Source: Promethearchaeia archaeon (GTDB lineage: Archaea; Asgardarchaeota; Lokiarchaeia; Sigyniarchaeales; SOKP01). From it: DNA of 47,248 bases. Within the stretch, counting starts at the first letter, position 1; every line of letters begins with the position of its first letter. Shown in pieces: positions 1 to 7,312 of this stretch. The DNA is taken from NCBI GenBank assembly GCA_029856155.1, contig JAHQWL010000034.1, positions 1 through 47,248 on the forward strand, written 5' to 3'. Under the pieces are notes generated by a model, which did no database searches, was not told the origin of the DNA, and saw nothing but the letters and a program-made list of their open reading frames with translations. A program made the translations under genes and the position numbers.

Positions 1-142
1 CAGATAACACCCCAACAAGAGAAATACCTATCCAAGGAACGCAAAAATACTCCAACACACACCCAATCGCATTCACCGCAAATAACACTGACCCACACAA
101 CAGCGATATGCCACCAAACAAATTACCCCCTAGCCTCGCCAT
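1..142 (-). CDS. Small hydrophobic membrane protein, paralog of 2187..2453 (5' part only; runs off the window edge)
   Basis: ATG at 142 (minus) reads MARLGGNLFGGISLLCGSVLFAVNAIG...; nt 1-127 are identical to 2312-2438; codons 2-5 differ by 5 substitutions, 4 of them synonymous. Confidence 0.8.
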   Translation of the reverse strand, partial: MARLGGNLFGGISLLCGSVLFAVNAIGCVLEYFCVPWIGISLVGVLS

Positions 143-209
143 AACATCATTTGATCACTCTGTCTTTTAAACTTATTTGTCAAAAAGAAAAAGAAAAAAT
201 AAAATCCTT

Positions 210-305
210 GCTCGAGAACATACTCCATCAACTCTTCTCATCTCAAATCAACCATCAACTTACCTTACCGCTCCTTTCCACATCCTATTCCCCTACACGC
301 TAAGC
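210..305 (-). repeat. Pre-23S 3' trailer / processing-stem arm, copy T1
   Basis: Shares GCTCnAGAACATACTCC...TCTCAAA...CTCC...CCCT...CTAAGC with 2103-2192 and 3645-3737; complementary to the 23S leader (7160-7304); followed on minus by a U-rich tract (182-204). Confidence 0.85.
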
Positions 306-457
306 CTGAACCTTGTGGTTCCTCTTTCAACACCACACACTCGTGCTATTGAGAGTGGCGGGCTGAACAGGTCGCCCGAAAGCTCCCTGCGTACACCCCC
401 ACCTCACTAACCCCGTCTTTTACGGGTGCACTCGTCTCGCATACTCAGTTCGCGTCA
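289..457 (-). repeat. Perfect 169-bp duplicate of the 23S rRNA 3' end (end of ES39, H99-H101, start of trailer)
   Basis: Base-for-base identical to 3721-3889 (offset 3432). Confidence 0.95.
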
Positions 458-474
458 TCAAGCTGACATTGCTA

Positions 475-1980
475 TTATATTTTAAAATTCAAAGTCATAT
501 TACACTCTTCACATGTATCTAACTCTTTGGATTGCACGTGATTACAATTCGAACAAACTGTTTCTGGAAATGTTGAAAAAAAGTCTCGAATTTTAGATAT
601 TATCTCCCCTTGTCTATGAGTAAATTCTTTATTTGATTCTTTTTGATATTTATCAATCACTAACTCAATAACTAACTTGTATGTTTTATTTCCTGTTTGA
701 ATCTTCCAAGCTTCATATTTATAATCAAAATTCATTGTAAATTCTAGATTTCCTGTTTTATTTACCTTAATATTGTAAGGTTTATTTATTAAATACATAT
801 CAGGATATTGAGCTAAAATTTTAAGATATTCTTCTCTCGCATTGACTATATGCTTATTAATTGCGGAAACTATAAGCCCAGTCACAGTTCTGCCAAAAGG
901 AATAACATCTGGTACAATAGTTTGTTTAGTCTTTGGCATACTCGGCCCATATAATCTATAATTTGTCATCCATATATGACCAGGGTATTTAAAATGTGCT
1001 TTTGGTAGCTTTACAGTTCCTTTAAAATGAGCAATTATATGCTCGTCTGCTTGAAAAGAGTAAATGAAAACAGTTTTTTCAAGCAAGTTACTCTCTAATT
1101 CAAAAAGATCTCGTTCTTTTTCCGGAAATAATTTTACTATATTCATTTTAATTTTTAAATCCCATATCTTAAAAAAACTCGGATTTATTTTAACCAAATT
1201 GATTAAGAGATCTGCTGAATCTTCTAGTGAATTTTGCATAAAGTAATTAGTAAATACGATCACTAATTCTTCTTCTTTTTTCTTTGTTGCATATTCTCCA
1301 GCCCTAAATTCAAAATTTGTAAGATCAGCAATTATTTTTTCTTTGGTATAACATGCATCATTAGAAACAGGTTCTATTTTTTCTGGATATTGAAAATTTC
1401 TTTCTTTTAGTAATTCATTAAGTAGTTTGGATCTTAGATTACTATATACAATTTCCAGCATGCAAATGTCTGATGGATTTTTTTTTGGAATTTTCCCTTT
1501 AGGATATGTTCTTAAGATTGGTGCTAAACGATCATAAATTTCTGATTTACTTTTTTTTATTAGGATTGCAGCTCTTCTTATTAATTCAACATTTCGTTGT
1601 TTAAATGGTTTTTTAGCATCTAAATCCTTATCTTTAATGACACTGAGATGACAATAAGGGAATCTATGATCCCCCAGTATTAATTCAGACCTAGAAAAAT
1701 CATACTGCATAACATGCCAAGGGATATAAATGAAATCTCTATTCCTAATAACACAGAATTTTTGAATATTGATAGAAAAGAGATTTGTAAATGCCACCCC
1801 ATTATCTGTTAATATTACATGGGAAATCCATTTATCATTTTTAGCTTGAACGTTGATTTTTACTACTTTCAATTTTCCACTATAAAAAATGTGATCTTCA
1901 GAGGGTATTATTTTACTTAACTTTGAATTCTCTAGTGGTTCATCAAGCTCAACTTCATTTAAAAAATCTAGATTCTCCAT
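475..1980 (-). CDS. Hypothetical protein with two PH/GRAM-like segments and a C-terminal zinc ribbon
   Basis: 501-aa ORF; IIPSEDHIFYS...WISHVILTDNGVAF and FQADEHII...GHIWMTNYRLY resemble PH/GRAM strand patterns; C-terminal CSNC...CEEC. Confidence 0.7.
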   Translation of the reverse strand: MENLDFLNEVELDEPLENSKLSKIIPSEDHIFYSGKLKVVKINVQAKNDKWISHVILTDNGVAFTNLFSINIQKFCVIRNRDFIYIPWHVMQYDFSRSELILGDHRFPYCHLSVIKDKDLDAKKPFKQRNVELIRRAAILIKKSKSEIYDRLAPILRTYPKGKIPKKNPSDICMLEIVYSNLRSKLLNELLKERNFQYPEKIEPVSNDACYTKEKIIADLTNFEFRAGEYATKKKEEELVIVFTNYFMQNSLEDSADLLINLVKINPSFFKIWDLKIKMNIVKLFPEKERDLFELESNLLEKTVFIYSFQADEHIIAHFKGTVKLPKAHFKYPGHIWMTNYRLYGPSMPKTKQTIVPDVIPFGRTVTGLIVSAINKHIVNAREEYLKILAQYPDMYLINKPYNIKVNKTGNLEFTMNFDYKYEAWKIQTGNKTYKLVIELVIDKYQKESNKEFTHRQGEIISKIRDFFSTFPETVCSNCNHVQSKELDTCEECNMTLNFKI

Positions 1981-2102
1981 ATTAAATCACTTAAAAATAC
2001 TTTTTTGTCTTAAATATCAATATTAATACCTAATTTATATTTATTAGGTTTTAATGGATAGAATATAAATTCTCTGTTCATAAAAAGAAATAATAAATCT
2101 TT

Positions 2103-2192
2103 GCTCTAGAACATACTCCATCTTTTCTTACTATCTCAAACCATTCAATCATTATAATCTCCGTCCACGCTATATTCCCTCATAACCTAAGC
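2103..2192 (-). repeat. Pre-23S 3' trailer / processing-stem arm, copy T2
   Basis: Diverged homolog of T1/T3, starting at GCTTAG (which supplies the stop codon of the 88-aa ORF) and ending GGAGTATGTTCTAGAGC; followed by a U-rich tract. Confidence 0.85.
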
Positions 2193-2453
2193 ATAATAAA
2201 CAATTACCTGTATCAACACGCCTACAAAATAGATTACGCTCTCCACCACACCCAAAATACACCCAACCTTCCCAAATAGCCCATCCTTATCATATCTCAT
2301 CCCAATTAGCCCAGATAACACCCCAACAAGAGAAATACCTATCCAAGGAACGCAAAAATACTCCAACACACACCCAATCGCATTCACCGCAAATAACACT
2401 GACCCACACAACAGCGATATGCCACCAAACAAATTACCGCCCAACCGCTCCAT
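2187..2453 (-). CDS. Small Gly-rich membrane protein (about 3 TM segments)
   Basis: 88-aa hydrophobic ORF; mostly synonymous differences versus the paralog at 1-142 support coding. Confidence 0.75.
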   Translation of the reverse strand: MERLGGNLFGGISLLCGSVLFAVNAIGCVLEYFCVPWIGISLVGVLSGLIGMRYDKDGLFGKVGCILGVVESVIYFVGVLIQVIVYYA

Positions 2454-2467
2454 AACTCGCTACCGTA

Positions 2468-3463
2468 TCAAATTCGGTCCTCATTATCAGATTCTTCAAG
2501 ATATTTCTTGTATTCTTCTTCTTTTTGAGCCATTAGTCCATTTGTTCTCATTTCATCCCTTCTTCTTCTTTTTTCTCTAATCTCAAAAACATCAATTAGA
2601 AAACTAATATTCTTGATAATACATTCGAATTCTTCTTTACGTTGATTATCCTCTTGATAAATGGAAATAAATTGCGCCCCACACTCAAAGCATCTTTTCC
2701 GTAAAAAAGTTATCATTCCCATAGCATTATATTTAAATTTCTTTTTGATATTTCCTTCATACATTATTTGCAAGTGAGGTAATAACTCAGTTTCATATTC
2801 CAGGAACTTTAGAGTCTTGCTACTATCAATTAATCTGCATATTTCAAAACCTGGTTCTTCTTTATGAAGTGTATTGTATAATTGTTTAAAAAACTCATAA
2901 ATTTCCAATACTTCGTGAGTGTTCAATAGGGGTTTTTGGGTCTCTGGGATTCTATGTGGAATAAGTTCTTTTATAAATTCTTGCTTTTTCTTATTGTTTT
3001 TCTTTCTTTTTACAGTTATTGCTGCGATTATTGCTATGATTAAACCTATAATTCCAACAACAATCAATGGAATTGTAATAAAAACAACAGAAGTATTAAT
3101 CGTTATAGAAGTTGTGGAAATCCCAATATTAATAAAAAGAATATGCCATGTATCAATACTTGGTGGATGCCAAGTACCACTATCGCTAAAGAAACTATGT
3201 TTATTCAGCCATGCAGTATAGTCAGATAAAATTAAGTTATAAAACGCATCATATTGCTGTTGGGTTAAAGCAATAACCATGATAGCTGAGCTAGTTGAAG
3301 AAAAAGACCATTTGTATGGATCAAGATTACCCATAAAATTAGAATCAGGAATATAAGTATAAGGGGATAAGCTATAGGTTCCCCGAAGTGCTTGTACTGG
3401 ATATACATAATTTAATCCGCTGAAAATTATCAAAAAAATAAATATTAAATAATTTTTATTCAT
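2468..3463 (-). CDS. Single-pass membrane protein (signal peptide, extracellular beta-rich domain, TM, cytoplasmic domain with CxxC)
   Basis: N-terminal hydrophobic leader ending VQA; TM VVFITIPLIVVGIIGLIIAIIAAITV followed by KRKKNNKKK; CFECG in the C-terminal part. Confidence 0.75.
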   Translation of the reverse strand: MNKNYLIFIFLIIFSGLNYVYPVQALRGTYSLSPYTYIPDSNFMGNLDPYKWSFSSTSSAIMVIALTQQQYDAFYNLILSDYTAWLNKHSFFSDSGTWHPPSIDTWHILFINIGISTTSITINTSVVFITIPLIVVGIIGLIIAIIAAITVKRKKNNKKKQEFIKELIPHRIPETQKPLLNTHEVLEIYEFFKQLYNTLHKEEPGFEICRLIDSSKTLKFLEYETELLPHLQIMYEGNIKKKFKYNAMGMITFLRKRCFECGAQFISIYQEDNQRKEEFECIIKNISFLIDVFEIREKRRRRDEMRTNGLMAQKEEEYKKYLEESDNEDRI

Positions 3464-3644
3464 TTTTTTTAATCGTGGATTTCTGTTTATTAATAATAAA
3501 ATTGTACATTTTTATCTATTTATATTTTATACTAGAATTATAAATCGGCACTAAATTATTGGATTATATTAGGAATATGCAATTCCAAAATATTTAACTC
3601 TTATGTTAAGAAATTTTGAATAAAAATAAAAAAATTAAAATCTA

Positions 3645-3737
3645 GCTCTAGAACATACTCCTTCCCTTCTCATCTCAAATCATTCATCAACCATCACTTA
3701 TCGCTCCTTCTACGCTACAATCCCCTACACGCTAAGC
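3645..3737 (-). repeat. Pre-23S 3' trailer / processing-stem arm, copy T3 (adjacent to the intact 23S gene)
   Basis: Directly follows the 23S 3' end; GGAGUAUGUUCU pairs with leader AGAACAUACUCC (7286-7297) and GAGC with GCUC (7301-7304) around an AUA bulge (BHB-like). Confidence 0.9.
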
Positions 3738-3867
3738 CTGAACCTTGTGGTTCCTCTTTCAACACCACACACTCGTGCTATTGAGAGTGGCGGGCTGAAC
3801 AGGTCGCCCGAAAGCTCCCTGCGTACACCCCCACCTCACTAACCCCGTCTTTTACGGGTGCACTCGT

Positions 3868-4106
3868 CTCGCATACTCAGTTCGCGTCACCGCGCCCTGA
3901 TCTCGTTACAAAGCATCCCATACATTCAAATTATAATGCTTCTCGCTTCATGCTTACGTCCACGCTCATGCTTCCGCTTTCGCTTCCACGCGCGCGCAAA
4001 CACTCGCATTTACACTCCGATTGGCTTCCGGCTTTCACAGGAGAACCTTACCAATCACACCAACTTAAATACATAACACACCTCGCAACACTCACTATAC
4101 GAGATT
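3868..4106 (-). other. LSU expansion segment ES39 (helix 98 insertion, about 240 nt)
   Basis: Insertion between CCCGAAAAUAGUCAGCC and GACGAGUGCACCCGUAAAAGACGGGG; closing helix AUCUCGU(4099-4105)/ACGAGAU(3900-3906); GAAGC-like short repeats. Confidence 0.85.
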
Positions 4107-4284
4107 GGCTGACTATTTTCGGGTTTGGCTTCGTGCTTAGATGCTTTCAGCACTTATCCATTGGCGCGTGGCTGCTCGGCACTACCTTGTCAGATAACCG
4201 ATACACTAGAGGCGCCGGCAAAATGTTCCTCTCGTACTGATTTTCCCTTACCCTCAGTCAACCCACAAACCCAGTAGATAGAAT

Positions 4285-4327
<43 letters not shown>

Positions 4328-4359
4328 TTAATGGGCGTACAGCCCCACCCTTGGAGGTT

Positions 4360-4391
4360 ATGCGCCTGTGCTCCTTTGCGGAAACACATAT
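4360..4391 (-). other. About 32-nt insertion in the helix-91 loop of 23S rRNA; candidate BHB micro-intron
   Basis: 39 nt lie between GGAGG and CCUCC where 8 are canonical; GCGC-ACA...hairpin...GCGC-AUA arrangement. Confidence 0.65.
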
Positions 4392-6307
4392 GTGCGCCTC
4401 CAGGATAGGAAGAGCCGACATCGAGGAAGCAAGCCACGAGGTCGATAGGGACTCTTACTCGTGACAACTCTGTTACCCCCGGGGTAATTTTTCTATCACC
4501 TCAACCATCCACACGAGAAATGTTGAGGATCGCTAGACCAGGCGTTAGCCTCAGGATTCCTTGGTGATCAGAATCCAGTCAGACCAGCTTTTGCTCTTAA
4601 ACTCTTCAGCGGATTCCTGACCCGCTTGAGCTGATCATTGGTTACTCTAGATATTGTTTCTAGAGTGAGCCGCCCCAGCCAAACTGCCCACCTGCGGGTG
4701 TCCGACGCGGTATGGGCGCCGTTAGCGATTTCAAAGGGGAAAGCCGGTGTTCCAATTGTGCTCCGCCGTAACCGAGATCACGGCATCGACGCTCCCGACT
4801 ACACTCTGTATCCAATTCAAAACCGCAGCAACAAGCTGCAGTAAAACTCCACGGGGTCTTCTCGTCCCACTGGGTTTCTCCGGACCGTTCGCCGGAGTGT
4901 AATTTCAATCGTCAGAAGGCTGGGACAATGGGGAGAACGTTGGACCATTCATGCACGTCTGAACTTACCAGACAAGGCATTTGGCTACCTTAAGAGAGTT
5001 ATAGTTACTCCCGGCGTTTAGCAGGACTTACTCGGGTTGTAACCCGGATTTATCAGACTGCCACTGGCCAGGTTTCAGCCACTGTAAACAAGCTTTCGCT
5101 CTATCAGTGACCTATGTTTTTATTAAACAGTCGTCCCCCCCTAGTTATTGCAACTTGTGAGCCCCTGCACACTGCCGAAGCTGCGTGTAGAAGTTCGCAA
5201 GCAAGCCTTATCCCAAAGTTACGGCTCTATTTTGTCGATTTCCCTAGCCTCCTTTACACGAATACGCCTTAGGCTACTCACCTAGGGGCACCTGTGTCGG
5301 TTCTGGGTACGATCACGGCATTTCTTACTTTTGCTTTTTTAGTAGGTCCTGGGATTGGCGGAACCTTCCACAATTGGATGGCTATTCATGCTTTAAGCTG
5401 GGTCTAAGTATTACACTATTCACCAGCCTTATGCATTTAAATAGGGAAATATTCGACAGCCCTATTCCACCTACCCTGAACCGTCGGCACAAAGTCATGC
5501 GTTACCGCTATTTGTAGTGCCGTGGTACAGGAATATAAACCTGTTTCCCTTTCGCGTATACCAGTTAAGGGTACGCTTAGGATCGACTAACTCTTCGCTG
5601 ACGACGCATTGCAAAGAAACCCTTGCCCTTTCGGCGGATGGGATTCTAACCCATCTATGCTTTTACTATTACCAGGATTTTCACTACGGGCAGATCCACA
5701 GGAACTCACGCCCCTGCTTCTGCTCTACCCGCACGCTCCCCTACCAGATCATGGGGTTCTTCCGCCCATGCTCTTGGGTCTCGGTGGCAGATTTGAGCCC
5801 CGTCCATTTTCGGGGCTATATTTCTCGGCAAATGAGTTGTTACACACTCGTTAGGGAATGGCTACTTCTATACCTATCCTTTTGCTGTTTTAGAAATATA
5901 ACGCCCTTTAGTGTAACACTTAACCTGCACTTAGGGACCTTAACCCAAGTCTAGGTTGTTCCCTTCTCGGCGATGGACTTTACGCCCACCAACCCGTTTC
6001 CCAGAGTCTACGGTGCCAGCAGATTCGGAGTTTAAGAGCGGGGAGAGGAATTTCTTCCCCGTACCACGCAATTAGTGCTCTACCCCACTGGCTCCCTCGT
6101 CTGAGACTTGGCTGACACCAACTTCGGGGAGAACCAGCTATCACCGATCTAGATTAGCCTTTTGCTCCTATTCCCAGTTCATCCAAGTGAATTGCACGTC
6201 AACACTGGTGCAGACCTCCATCGCCCTTTCGAGCGACTTCATCTTGACCAGGAATAGATCGACCGGCTTCGGGTATTATAGCAGAGACTTTTGGCCCTTT
6301 AAGACCA

Positions 6308-6412
6308 TTCTTCTGGCTTAATTCCTTAGAAGGATTCACTAAACGTTTTCAGAATGGCAGAACCACTCTTAAACGAGTAGGTCTTCCTAATGTGATAATT
6401 AAGTTGCAAGAA
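6308..6412 (-). other. LSU expansion segment ES9 (about 105 nt)
   Basis: Insertion after GGGAAACC closed by UUCUUGCAACUUAAUU / AAUUAAGCCAGAAGAA, before GGUCUUAAAGGGCC. Confidence 0.7.
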
Positions 6413-7142
6413 TATTGGTTTCCCTATGCCTACGCGCCGTAAGACGCTTAAGCTTGCCACTACTATAAACTCCCTGGCCAATGATTCCAGACTGATGATG
6501 CGACCCTAGTCCTCTGTATTTTGATATTCTGTCACCAGAACTCATTCATGCAGAATCTGTCCTTTCAGGCTGCATCCTTAATAAACTATTTGGTTTCAAG
6601 CACTTTTCAACGCCCTTCCGGGTTACTTTTCATCTTTCGCTCACGCTACTATTTCGCTATCGGTCTTGGGACATATTTAGATTTACCAGCGTGTATCTGG
6701 CACGTTCATACGAGAAAACCATCCCGCATTACTCGGGGACTCTCGCAGCAACCTTCTAGATTATGATTACGCGGCTGTCACGCTCTATGGCTCAACATTC
6801 AAGAGGTATTCATCTTCTCTAGGGAGGTCGTACAAGGCCCACACACCACATTTCCCATAGGTTTCCCTAGGGATTCGGTTTGATCTAATCCGCTTTCGCT
6901 CGCCGTTACTCACGGAATCACTATTGTTTTCTTTTCCTCCTGGTACTAAAATGTTTTACTTCCCAGGGTTCCCCTTCCCATGAGGGAATCTTGCGGATTA
7001 TTAGGCCGCAAGCGGATGTCCTATTCGAGAATCTCGGGGTCAACGTCTTCATGCGACTAACCCGAGCTTATCGCAGCTTGTCACGCTCTTCATCGGTGCC
7101 CAAGCCAAGATATCCACCAAATAGTGGAGGCGTATTGGCGTC

Positions 7143-7312
7143 TAGTTGAGGAAAGATTCAGATTGCTTGTATAAGGGTATGCGTATTCGGAGACAATAAG
7201 TCTATTGAGTATCTATTAATATCACTCAATATCATTAATGACGATTTGAAACGATAATAAGAAGACATAAATTAATATTAATTAGGGAGTATGTTCTTAT
7301 GAGCATGATTTT
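7143..7312 (-). other. 5' arm of the pre-23S processing stem (leader)
   Basis: Blockwise complementary to the trailer: UCUGAAUCU/AGGUUCAGG, CCCUUAUAC/GUGUAGGGG, CUUAUUG/CGAUAAG, UUUCAAAUC/GAUUUGAGA, AGAACAUACUCC/GGAGUAUGUUCU. Confidence 0.85.

Follow-up and report, generated by a model that had tools for sequence, protein, structure and literature searches.

How does an archaeal 23S rRNA gene come to be followed by several diverged copies of its own trailer, all of which still pair with its single 5' leader? The window analyzed here, which is the whole 47,248-nt contig JAHQWL010000034.1 (C34) of a Promethearchaeia archaeon, raises this question with the trailers T3, T2, and T1, which lie in that order behind the gene. 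Our answer, which we consider probable, is that T1 and T2 are former working trailers that were displaced by recombination-driven serial gene insertion with long target duplication. The contig belongs to a 4.1-Mb, 30% GC metagenome assembly, and its 23S rRNA gene, the sole one, stands alone on the minus strand (RF02540, full length, 2534 bits); 16S rRNA (RF01959) was not found anywhere in the assembly, which is 97% complete with 5.7% contamination. Downstream of the 23S gene and in the same direction come T3, a 331-aa gene, an 88-aa gene, T2, and a 501-aa gene; after these come 169 bp identical to the 23S end, then T1, and last the 88-aa gene once more, truncated by the contig end. The leader, the gene, and the trailers, with their portions of the BHB (bulge-helix-bulge) motif, are placed as follows.

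7143 to 7312, minus strand: 5' leader of 23S, which provides the only 5' arm of the processing stem; it co-folds with all trailers and is 97% identical to the leader of G005, a genome of another species.
3761 to 7141, minus strand: archaeal 23S rRNA gene (RF02540).
3621 to 3760, minus strand: T3, the working trailer, with BHB half (3746 to 3722), predicted cut at 3732/3731, variable middle, stem base (3661 to 3637), and U-tract.
2082 to 2192, minus strand: T2, a 5'-truncated relic that begins at the BHB central helix, with the inner helix missing and the first outer pair broken.
289 to 457, minus strand: 169-bp duplicate identical to 3721 to 3889, comprising the final 129 nt of 23S, the spacer, and a complete BHB half.
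186 to 328, minus strand: T1, a full-length and probably displaced trailer allele, with an intact BHB half (314 to 290) and U-tract.

The state of a locus before and after such an insertion is captured by a pair of contigs. The "before" contig (L191) carries 23S, a trailer, and a 153-aa gene. The "after" contig (L069) has the same 23S end and a trailer that matches that of L191 for half its length and then continues as another allele. Behind this trailer come 6.0 kb of cargo and then a relic with 99% identity to the trailer of L191, after which the downstream DNA is again that of L191; ~180 bp are duplicated. A crossover inside the trailer accounts for this layout, with the new tail in front and the old tail behind. 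In the window, T1 and T3 show no differences over 169 positions and then 21 over the next 81 (26%; Fisher P = 7e-12), a sharp switch that is not as expected from drift after self-duplication, and T1 is closer to the working trailer of G005 (87%) than to T3 (78 to 80%). An earlier, sequence-only reading of this DNA had recognized T1 as a trailer copy, which it is, but missed the identical 169-bp copy of the 23S 3' end that precedes it. Its proposal that trailers were imported from relatives holds in that the copies were once functional, as the affinity of T1 to G005, the T1/T3 switch, and the before/after pair indicate, but it has to be turned around in one respect: the displaced resident is the copy farther from the gene, and the copy next to the gene is the newcomer or a hybrid.

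In the mechanism that we propose, DNA from a relative would bring in a trailer tail with its terminator, whole genes, and a 5'-truncated head consisting of a 23S end or trailer, and the shared sequence would let this DNA recombine into the resident 23S end or trailer. The gene would then be followed directly by a new or hybrid trailer, and the old trailer would lie downstream of the cargo. We infer that host homologous recombination drives the insertion and that illegitimate joins first create the cassettes, while leader compatibility would make the trailers swappable. Recombination between the two 169-bp repeats would excise 3432 bp and thereby restore T1 to work at the DNA level.

The pairing on which such swapping would depend is real and exceeds what G-U tolerance alone gives. 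Every pairing block named in the sequence-only reading was found in place, formed by Watson-Crick or G-U pairs. Co-folding with the leader yielded 97, 97, and 96 intermolecular base pairs for T3, T1, and T2, with duplex energies of -89, -81, and -70 kcal/mol, compared with -48, -49, and -41 kcal/mol (standard deviation, ~4.6) for dinucleotide shuffles, and none of 300 shuffles of the middle alone reached the real energies. The changes in T1 and T2 had also been claimed to be nonrandom with respect to pairing, and they are: neutral drift from T3 with equal substitution and indel counts gave duplexes 11 to 14 kcal/mol worse, a simulation that the real trailers beat modestly (T1, P = 0.03 to 0.05; T2, P = 0.01 to 0.03).

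The pairing is not tuned to this particular leader, however, as had been supposed, given that working trailers of five other species pair with it equally well (-88 to -98 kcal/mol, with -98, -91, -91, and -88 among the values, compared with -96 for T3, -89 for T1, and -77 for T2). T1 pairs best with leaders of other species. Of 10 working trailers, 7 have their cognate leader in first rank, so leader-trailer co-adaptation exists; for T3 the cognate leader comes only fifth, which fits T3 as a recently arrived allele. Between this genome and G005, the leader is 97% shared and the working trailer 83%, and leaders change slowly and trailers fast. T1 and T2 are alleles shaped by selection while they were working trailers, and they pair with the leader because each was selected in that role against a leader conserved across the genus. 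No extra leader copies were found in 43 genus genomes or in the 20 kb upstream of two 23S genes.

Where the stem would be cut differs from what had been proposed. The sequence GGAGUAUGUUCUnGAGC, previously taken for the BHB-like site, is instead the base of the stem and forms a 1x3 loop in the three copies of this genome. In 9 of 11 cognate pairs, this site is a plain 2-nt leader bulge, with the 1x3 loop occurring here and in G064; lacking two 3-nt bulges around a 4-bp helix, the stem base fails the BHB geometry. A canonical 3-4-3 BHB adjoins the rRNA, where leader 7177 to 7153 meets T3 3746 to 3722 in an AAGC/GCUU helix with bulges AAU (7164 to 7162) and AGC (3733 to 3731) and a 9-bp helix on each side. 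The 3-4-3 geometry is kept in all 11 leader-trailer pairs from the genus, and the outer helix covaries on both strands across the 11 species. The two leader segments are as follows.

7153 to 7177, minus strand: the leader's side of the canonical 3-4-3 BHB, composed of outer helix, AAGC, bulge AAU (7164 to 7162), and inner helix.
7286 to 7312, minus strand: base of the processing stem, where a conserved helix is interrupted by a 2-nt bulge or a 1x3 loop and no BHB is formed.

With the leader, T1 also forms a 3-4-3 BHB, identical in motif to that of T3. T2 had been credited with keeping the BHB as well, but the end of the 88-aa gene occupies the place of its inner helix, its first outer pair is broken, and the BHB energy is -15 kcal/mol with T2 versus -25 kcal/mol for the intact motif. 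The ligation junctions expected by the sequence-only reading (7298 to 215, 2108, or 3650) are likewise wrong, because the BHB adjoins the rRNA and not the stem base. The splicing endonuclease usually cuts after the second bulge base. Its cut at the T3 BHB is predicted to join 3732 to 7162, giving a 3431-nt circle. The stem of the leader and T3 is shown as a structure, and its cleavage would be expected by analogy with other archaea: in Haloferax, circular pre-rRNA needs an intact BHB (PMC7038931), and circular 23S transcripts have been reported in Asgard archaea (PMC12918454). The genome encodes, on contigs C13 and C52, two unlinked subunits of the splicing endonuclease EndA (L208:1177-1773 and L209:1219-1827), one with the Tyr/His/Lys catalytic residues and the other apparently without the His. 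The enzyme here is probably heteromeric, and heteromeric splicing endonucleases accept relaxed motifs. Although the stem base itself (7261 to 7312 and 3637 to 3661) is no BHB and is found ~100 bp beyond the cut, it is almost invariant across the genus; it may serve for protein binding or nucleation. None of the viral contigs carrying the stem-base motif matched the trailer model.

The window holds only part of a larger array. T1, T2, and T3 are real trailer copies, as had been noted, but they are not the total, since six more lie on contig C83 of the same genome in a gene order common to the distal arrays of relatives, and the array probably continues from C34 onto C83. This genome thus has 8 relics, and related Promethearchaeota have ~160. 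Matches to the trailer-based pattern fall mostly in Promethearchaeota (Lokiarchaeia-type Asgard) records; in a genus search, 29 of 36 genomes matched, many with several copies, and the same architecture recurs in dozens of independent assemblies, including independent metagenome contigs. Most relics (130 of 161) extend to the terminator, whereas the left ends of the 161 are scattered between about -177 and +90 relative to the BHB helix and do not peak at the cut site. All relics lie 3' of 23S in a single orientation, and none were found behind the 16S genes examined, three in as many genomes. Relics are absent within ~16 kb of 23S in G044 and G055 (L138 to L142), which have two or three 23S copies, and present in three other genomes of the same order (G050, G054, and G042; L143, L146, L151, and L163), making a link between a single 23S gene and array formation possible.

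RNA-based origins of the relics were considered and rejected. A cluster of left ends at the EndA cut, as RNA-derived copies would leave, appeared in the first hidden Markov model map and vanished after pairwise refinement. Retroposition of 5'-truncated RNA copies is contradicted by the absence of any RVT_1 (reverse transcriptase) match in the genome, the lack of a peak at the EndA cut, and the clustering of the copies on C34 and C83.

Several further observations concern the distribution of relics and rRNA genes. Relics with cargo and no 23S match nearby occur in mid-contig positions (L043, G002:C2 at ~289100 to 290100; G024:C28 at ~150650 and 453960; G016:C1 at ~369360), suggesting that arrays also form secondarily or that blocks have moved. 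Relics that are internal pieces of 23S, with both ends cut (L032:3456-3509, L034:4105-4181, L035:17023-17086, L118:12193-12300, and L031:4034-4078) imply that later joins trim the 3' side too. Near the 23S 3' end, a long variable expansion (window ~3890 to 4110) breaks alignments to relatives; none of the relics seen extends that far, and the tendency of assemblies to break at long repeats may be the reason. 16S was present in 6 of 54 assemblies of the genus, compared with 44 in which the 23S 5' region was matched. Outside the archaea, the trailer pattern matched a Jiulongibacter contig (L076; NZ_LGTQ01000013.1), which may be chance, and a Piscirickettsiaceae bin (L065), which is probably a misbinned archaeal contig.

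Between the relics, the cargo consists of whole genes in both orientations (72:52 and 53:33 sense to antisense). The median distance of the junction is 36 nt past the stop codon for sense genes and 130 nt ahead of the start for antisense genes, and cargo genes keep ~100 to 130 nt upstream of their starts. The proximal cargo, including the first gene after the working trailer, differs in nearly all genomes, whereas the distal end is syntenic. The cargo of the window is as follows.

2468 to 3463, minus strand: cargo A, a 331-aa predicted membrane protein with only subthreshold Pfam matches.
2187 to 2453, minus strand: cargo B, an 88-aa hydrophobic protein, for which the first bases of T2 supply the stop codon.
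475 to 1980, minus strand: cargo C, a 501-aa protein with a C-terminal pair of CxxC motifs and no Pfam family.
1 to 145, minus strand: cargo B once more (97%), truncated by the contig end.

Cargo B has one weak homologue (28%) among 53 genus genomes; cargo C has three homologues at 40 to 46%, and the 46% homologue lies directly behind a trailer relic in another sample. The scanned cargo of this genome comprises amidohydrolase, GPP34, HTH, beta-propeller, flavodoxin, DUF1326, and DUF362 proteins and unknowns, the GPP34 (Golgi phosphoprotein 3) family gene lying between two relics (L031:1097-1759; E = 2e-20). One cassette end, with its junction at -49 to -57, recurs in four genomes with different downstream neighbors. 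The first trailer copy of G027 shares the 137 nt downstream of T2 at 94%. G027 retains the stretch behind T2 together with the initial 12 codons of the 501-aa gene (L041:256-403, corresponding to window 1945 to 2082) and then switches to an unrelated antisense gene, an illegitimate join that creates a new trailer-cargo junction. Elsewhere in this genome, we found ~25 other close direct repeats (55 to 350 bp, <15 kb apart), most of which bracket open reading frames (ORFs); those on contigs C5, C21, C82, C89, C97, C100, and others include several that hold a gene end and bracket 1 to 12 ORFs. The similarity of these repeat-bracketed ORFs makes the process look general, with the 23S tail looking like its hotspot.

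Several points weigh against serial displacement by recombination. Plain homology does not explain the strict 3' polarity or the lack of relics behind the three 16S genes, so that a dedicated route may exist. The relics are not independent samples, and their left ends are ill-defined where they fall in the variable middle. That the BHB core decays slightly more slowly than the dead 23S part of relics (P = 0.06, from related samples) may hint at continued use, although it could equally result from repeated crossovers with working alleles. The recombination event, the circle, and the DNA-uptake route are all putative. Finally, the lack of recombinases in the arrays, which fits the model, holds for the tyrosine type (no homologue in 865 kb of array loci), serine recombinases and transposases being outside that search.

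Among the other readings, a broader one holds that the 23S trailer is a population-wide exchangeable docking site, at which the conserved leader accepts any allele of the pool and cassettes enter and exit without an integrase by a dedicated, 3'-polar route. We regard this as tentative and clearly less probable than serial displacement. In its strongest form, intact relics such as T1 would sometimes be used by EndA on read-through RNA, yielding stable circles with cargo mRNAs.

Somewhat less likely still is an unrecognized dedicated system (a nuclease or recombinase acting in trans, or breaks linked to the transcription and termination of rRNA) that targets the 23S tail. Such a system would account for the 3' polarity and the density of insertions, and the single orientation of the relics, the whole-gene cargo with its regular spacing from stops and starts, and the absence of relics near 23S in multioperon G044 and G055 are all in keeping with it. 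Nevertheless, there is no fixed crossover or att core, similar repeat-bracketed cargo occurs at the ~25 other sites, and the arrays contain no candidate enzyme in the tyrosine-recombinase search. The genome has one tyrosine-recombinase homologue, on another contig, and no mobile-element domains were found in the 14 proteins scanned by Pfam. No attC-like hairpin was detected on either strand (z-scores, -1.2 to +1.5), and a scan for sigma-70 promoters and hairpin terminators, with models not suited to archaea, stayed at chance level.

It is improbable that read-through transcripts pair the leader with T1 or T2 to give larger circular pre-23S molecules carrying cargo mRNAs (6863 nt via T1), with selection keeping the pairing. 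T1 does have an intact BHB and as many pairs with the leader as T3, the BHB core is intact in 52 of the 65 relics that cover it, and genes upstream of relics are mildly sense biased (53:33; P = 0.04). An EndA subunit with catalytic residues and circular 23S in Asgard transcripts (PMC12918454) would also suit such processing. Yet T3 is transcribed first, is followed by a U-tract, and pairs better than T1 by 7 and than T2 by 20 kcal/mol; full-length relics pair more weakly than their own working copy in 11 of 11 cases (median, 12 kcal/mol). T2 has no BHB, the site named for distal cleavage was the wrong one, and ~40% of the cargo is antisense. Moreover, about half of all relics align only outside the BHB (of 159, 66 only downstream of its helix, and 14 stopping short of it), although the variable middle limits some of these left ends. 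In 38 long relics, decay at sites invariant among working copies was lowest in the BHB core (2.1%) and highest in the middle (5.6%), with 3.8% for the 23S part and 3.7% for the stem base, and relics thus decay roughly neutrally, about as fast as dead 23S sequence.

Very little speaks for the copies being drifted local tandem duplications of T3 whose pairing is kept by G-U tolerance alone. Trailers are G/A/U rich and the leader is C/U rich, so that shuffles alone reach -41 to -64 kcal/mol, but this account founders on the nonuniform T1/T3 divergence, the drift simulations, the proximity of T1 to another species' allele, and flanking genes without tandem copies, and it is largely refuted by L191 and L069. 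An assembly chimera of strain variants joined via the 169-bp repeat, conceivable in a contaminated metagenome assembly with a repeat of about read length and a contig ending in a duplicated gene, is the least credible explanation, because the architecture recurs in independent assemblies and T2 and most relics have unique short junctions common to several genomes, so that it could affect the T1 join here but not the array type.

Serial displacement finds its nearest counterpart in bacteria, as the array appears to work like an insertion with long target duplication repeated at one site. Restriction-modification (RM) genes insert as whole genes with a variable direct duplication of >30 bp and no other mobile element; these inserts are <20 kb and occur mostly in naturally competent species, and the events were single and bacterial, no archaeal case having passed the screen and rRNA going unmentioned (PMC2853133). 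The filled/empty pair L069/L191 (6.0-kb insert, ~180 bp duplicated) and the 169 bp around 3.3 kb in the window resemble these cases, including the varying duplication lengths. In contrast to them, the insertion is repeated here at one essential RNA-processing site with mixed cargo, among which scanning revealed no restriction and modification genes, and the two copies are different alleles with an internal crossover.

The array also resembles tandem ssrA islands, albeit without their fixed repeat and integrase. In Dehalococcoides, such islands have a fixed 20-bp repeat, a precise insertion site, and a serine integrase module (PMC3146451). Like these islands and tRNA/tmRNA 3'-end accretion in general, the array is a polar stack behind a single-copy stable-RNA gene, bounded by 3'-end copies in the same direction. 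However, its repeat reaches ~280 bp, has scattered left ends, and includes a processing arm and terminator; no integrase (searched for as the tyrosine type only) lies beside it, and the first gene differs between genomes. Small cassettes, a repeated noncoding site, addition at one end, and shuffling between genomes recall integrons and CALINs (clusters of attC sites lacking integron integrases), including archaeal ones (PMC9668308). Compared with these, the array has no attC hairpin and no integrase, its repeat is part of an rRNA gene, and its cassettes lie in both orientations with their own upstream regions rather than being mostly co-oriented and promoterless; it is not an integron. As in archaeal pre-rRNA processing generally, the stem of leader and T3 is long and includes a canonical 3-4-3 BHB, and EndA genes are present (PMC7038931 and PMC12918454), whereas an exchangeable pool of trailer alleles facing a conserved leader and spare arms downstream set this stem apart, the use of distal arms not having been described. 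A literature search whose coverage left out subscription papers found no published description of rRNA-tail arrays.

The present analysis adds a corrected position for the processing site, tests of heterologous pairing and of relic decay, and the before/after contigs. If true, rRNA circles with cargo would be of greater importance, but the evidence is against them. The arrays help to explain why assemblies frequently break at the 23S 3' end. They also provide a natural library of >200 trailer variants that pair with near-identical leaders, making the sequence tolerance of archaeal rRNA processing stems directly testable. Above all, they suggest that Asgard archaea, which among prokaryotes are the closest relatives of eukaryotes, gain genes by a regular route that apparently needs no integrase, is anchored in an rRNA processing arm rather than in a tRNA, and leaves relics that form an ordered record of acquisitions.

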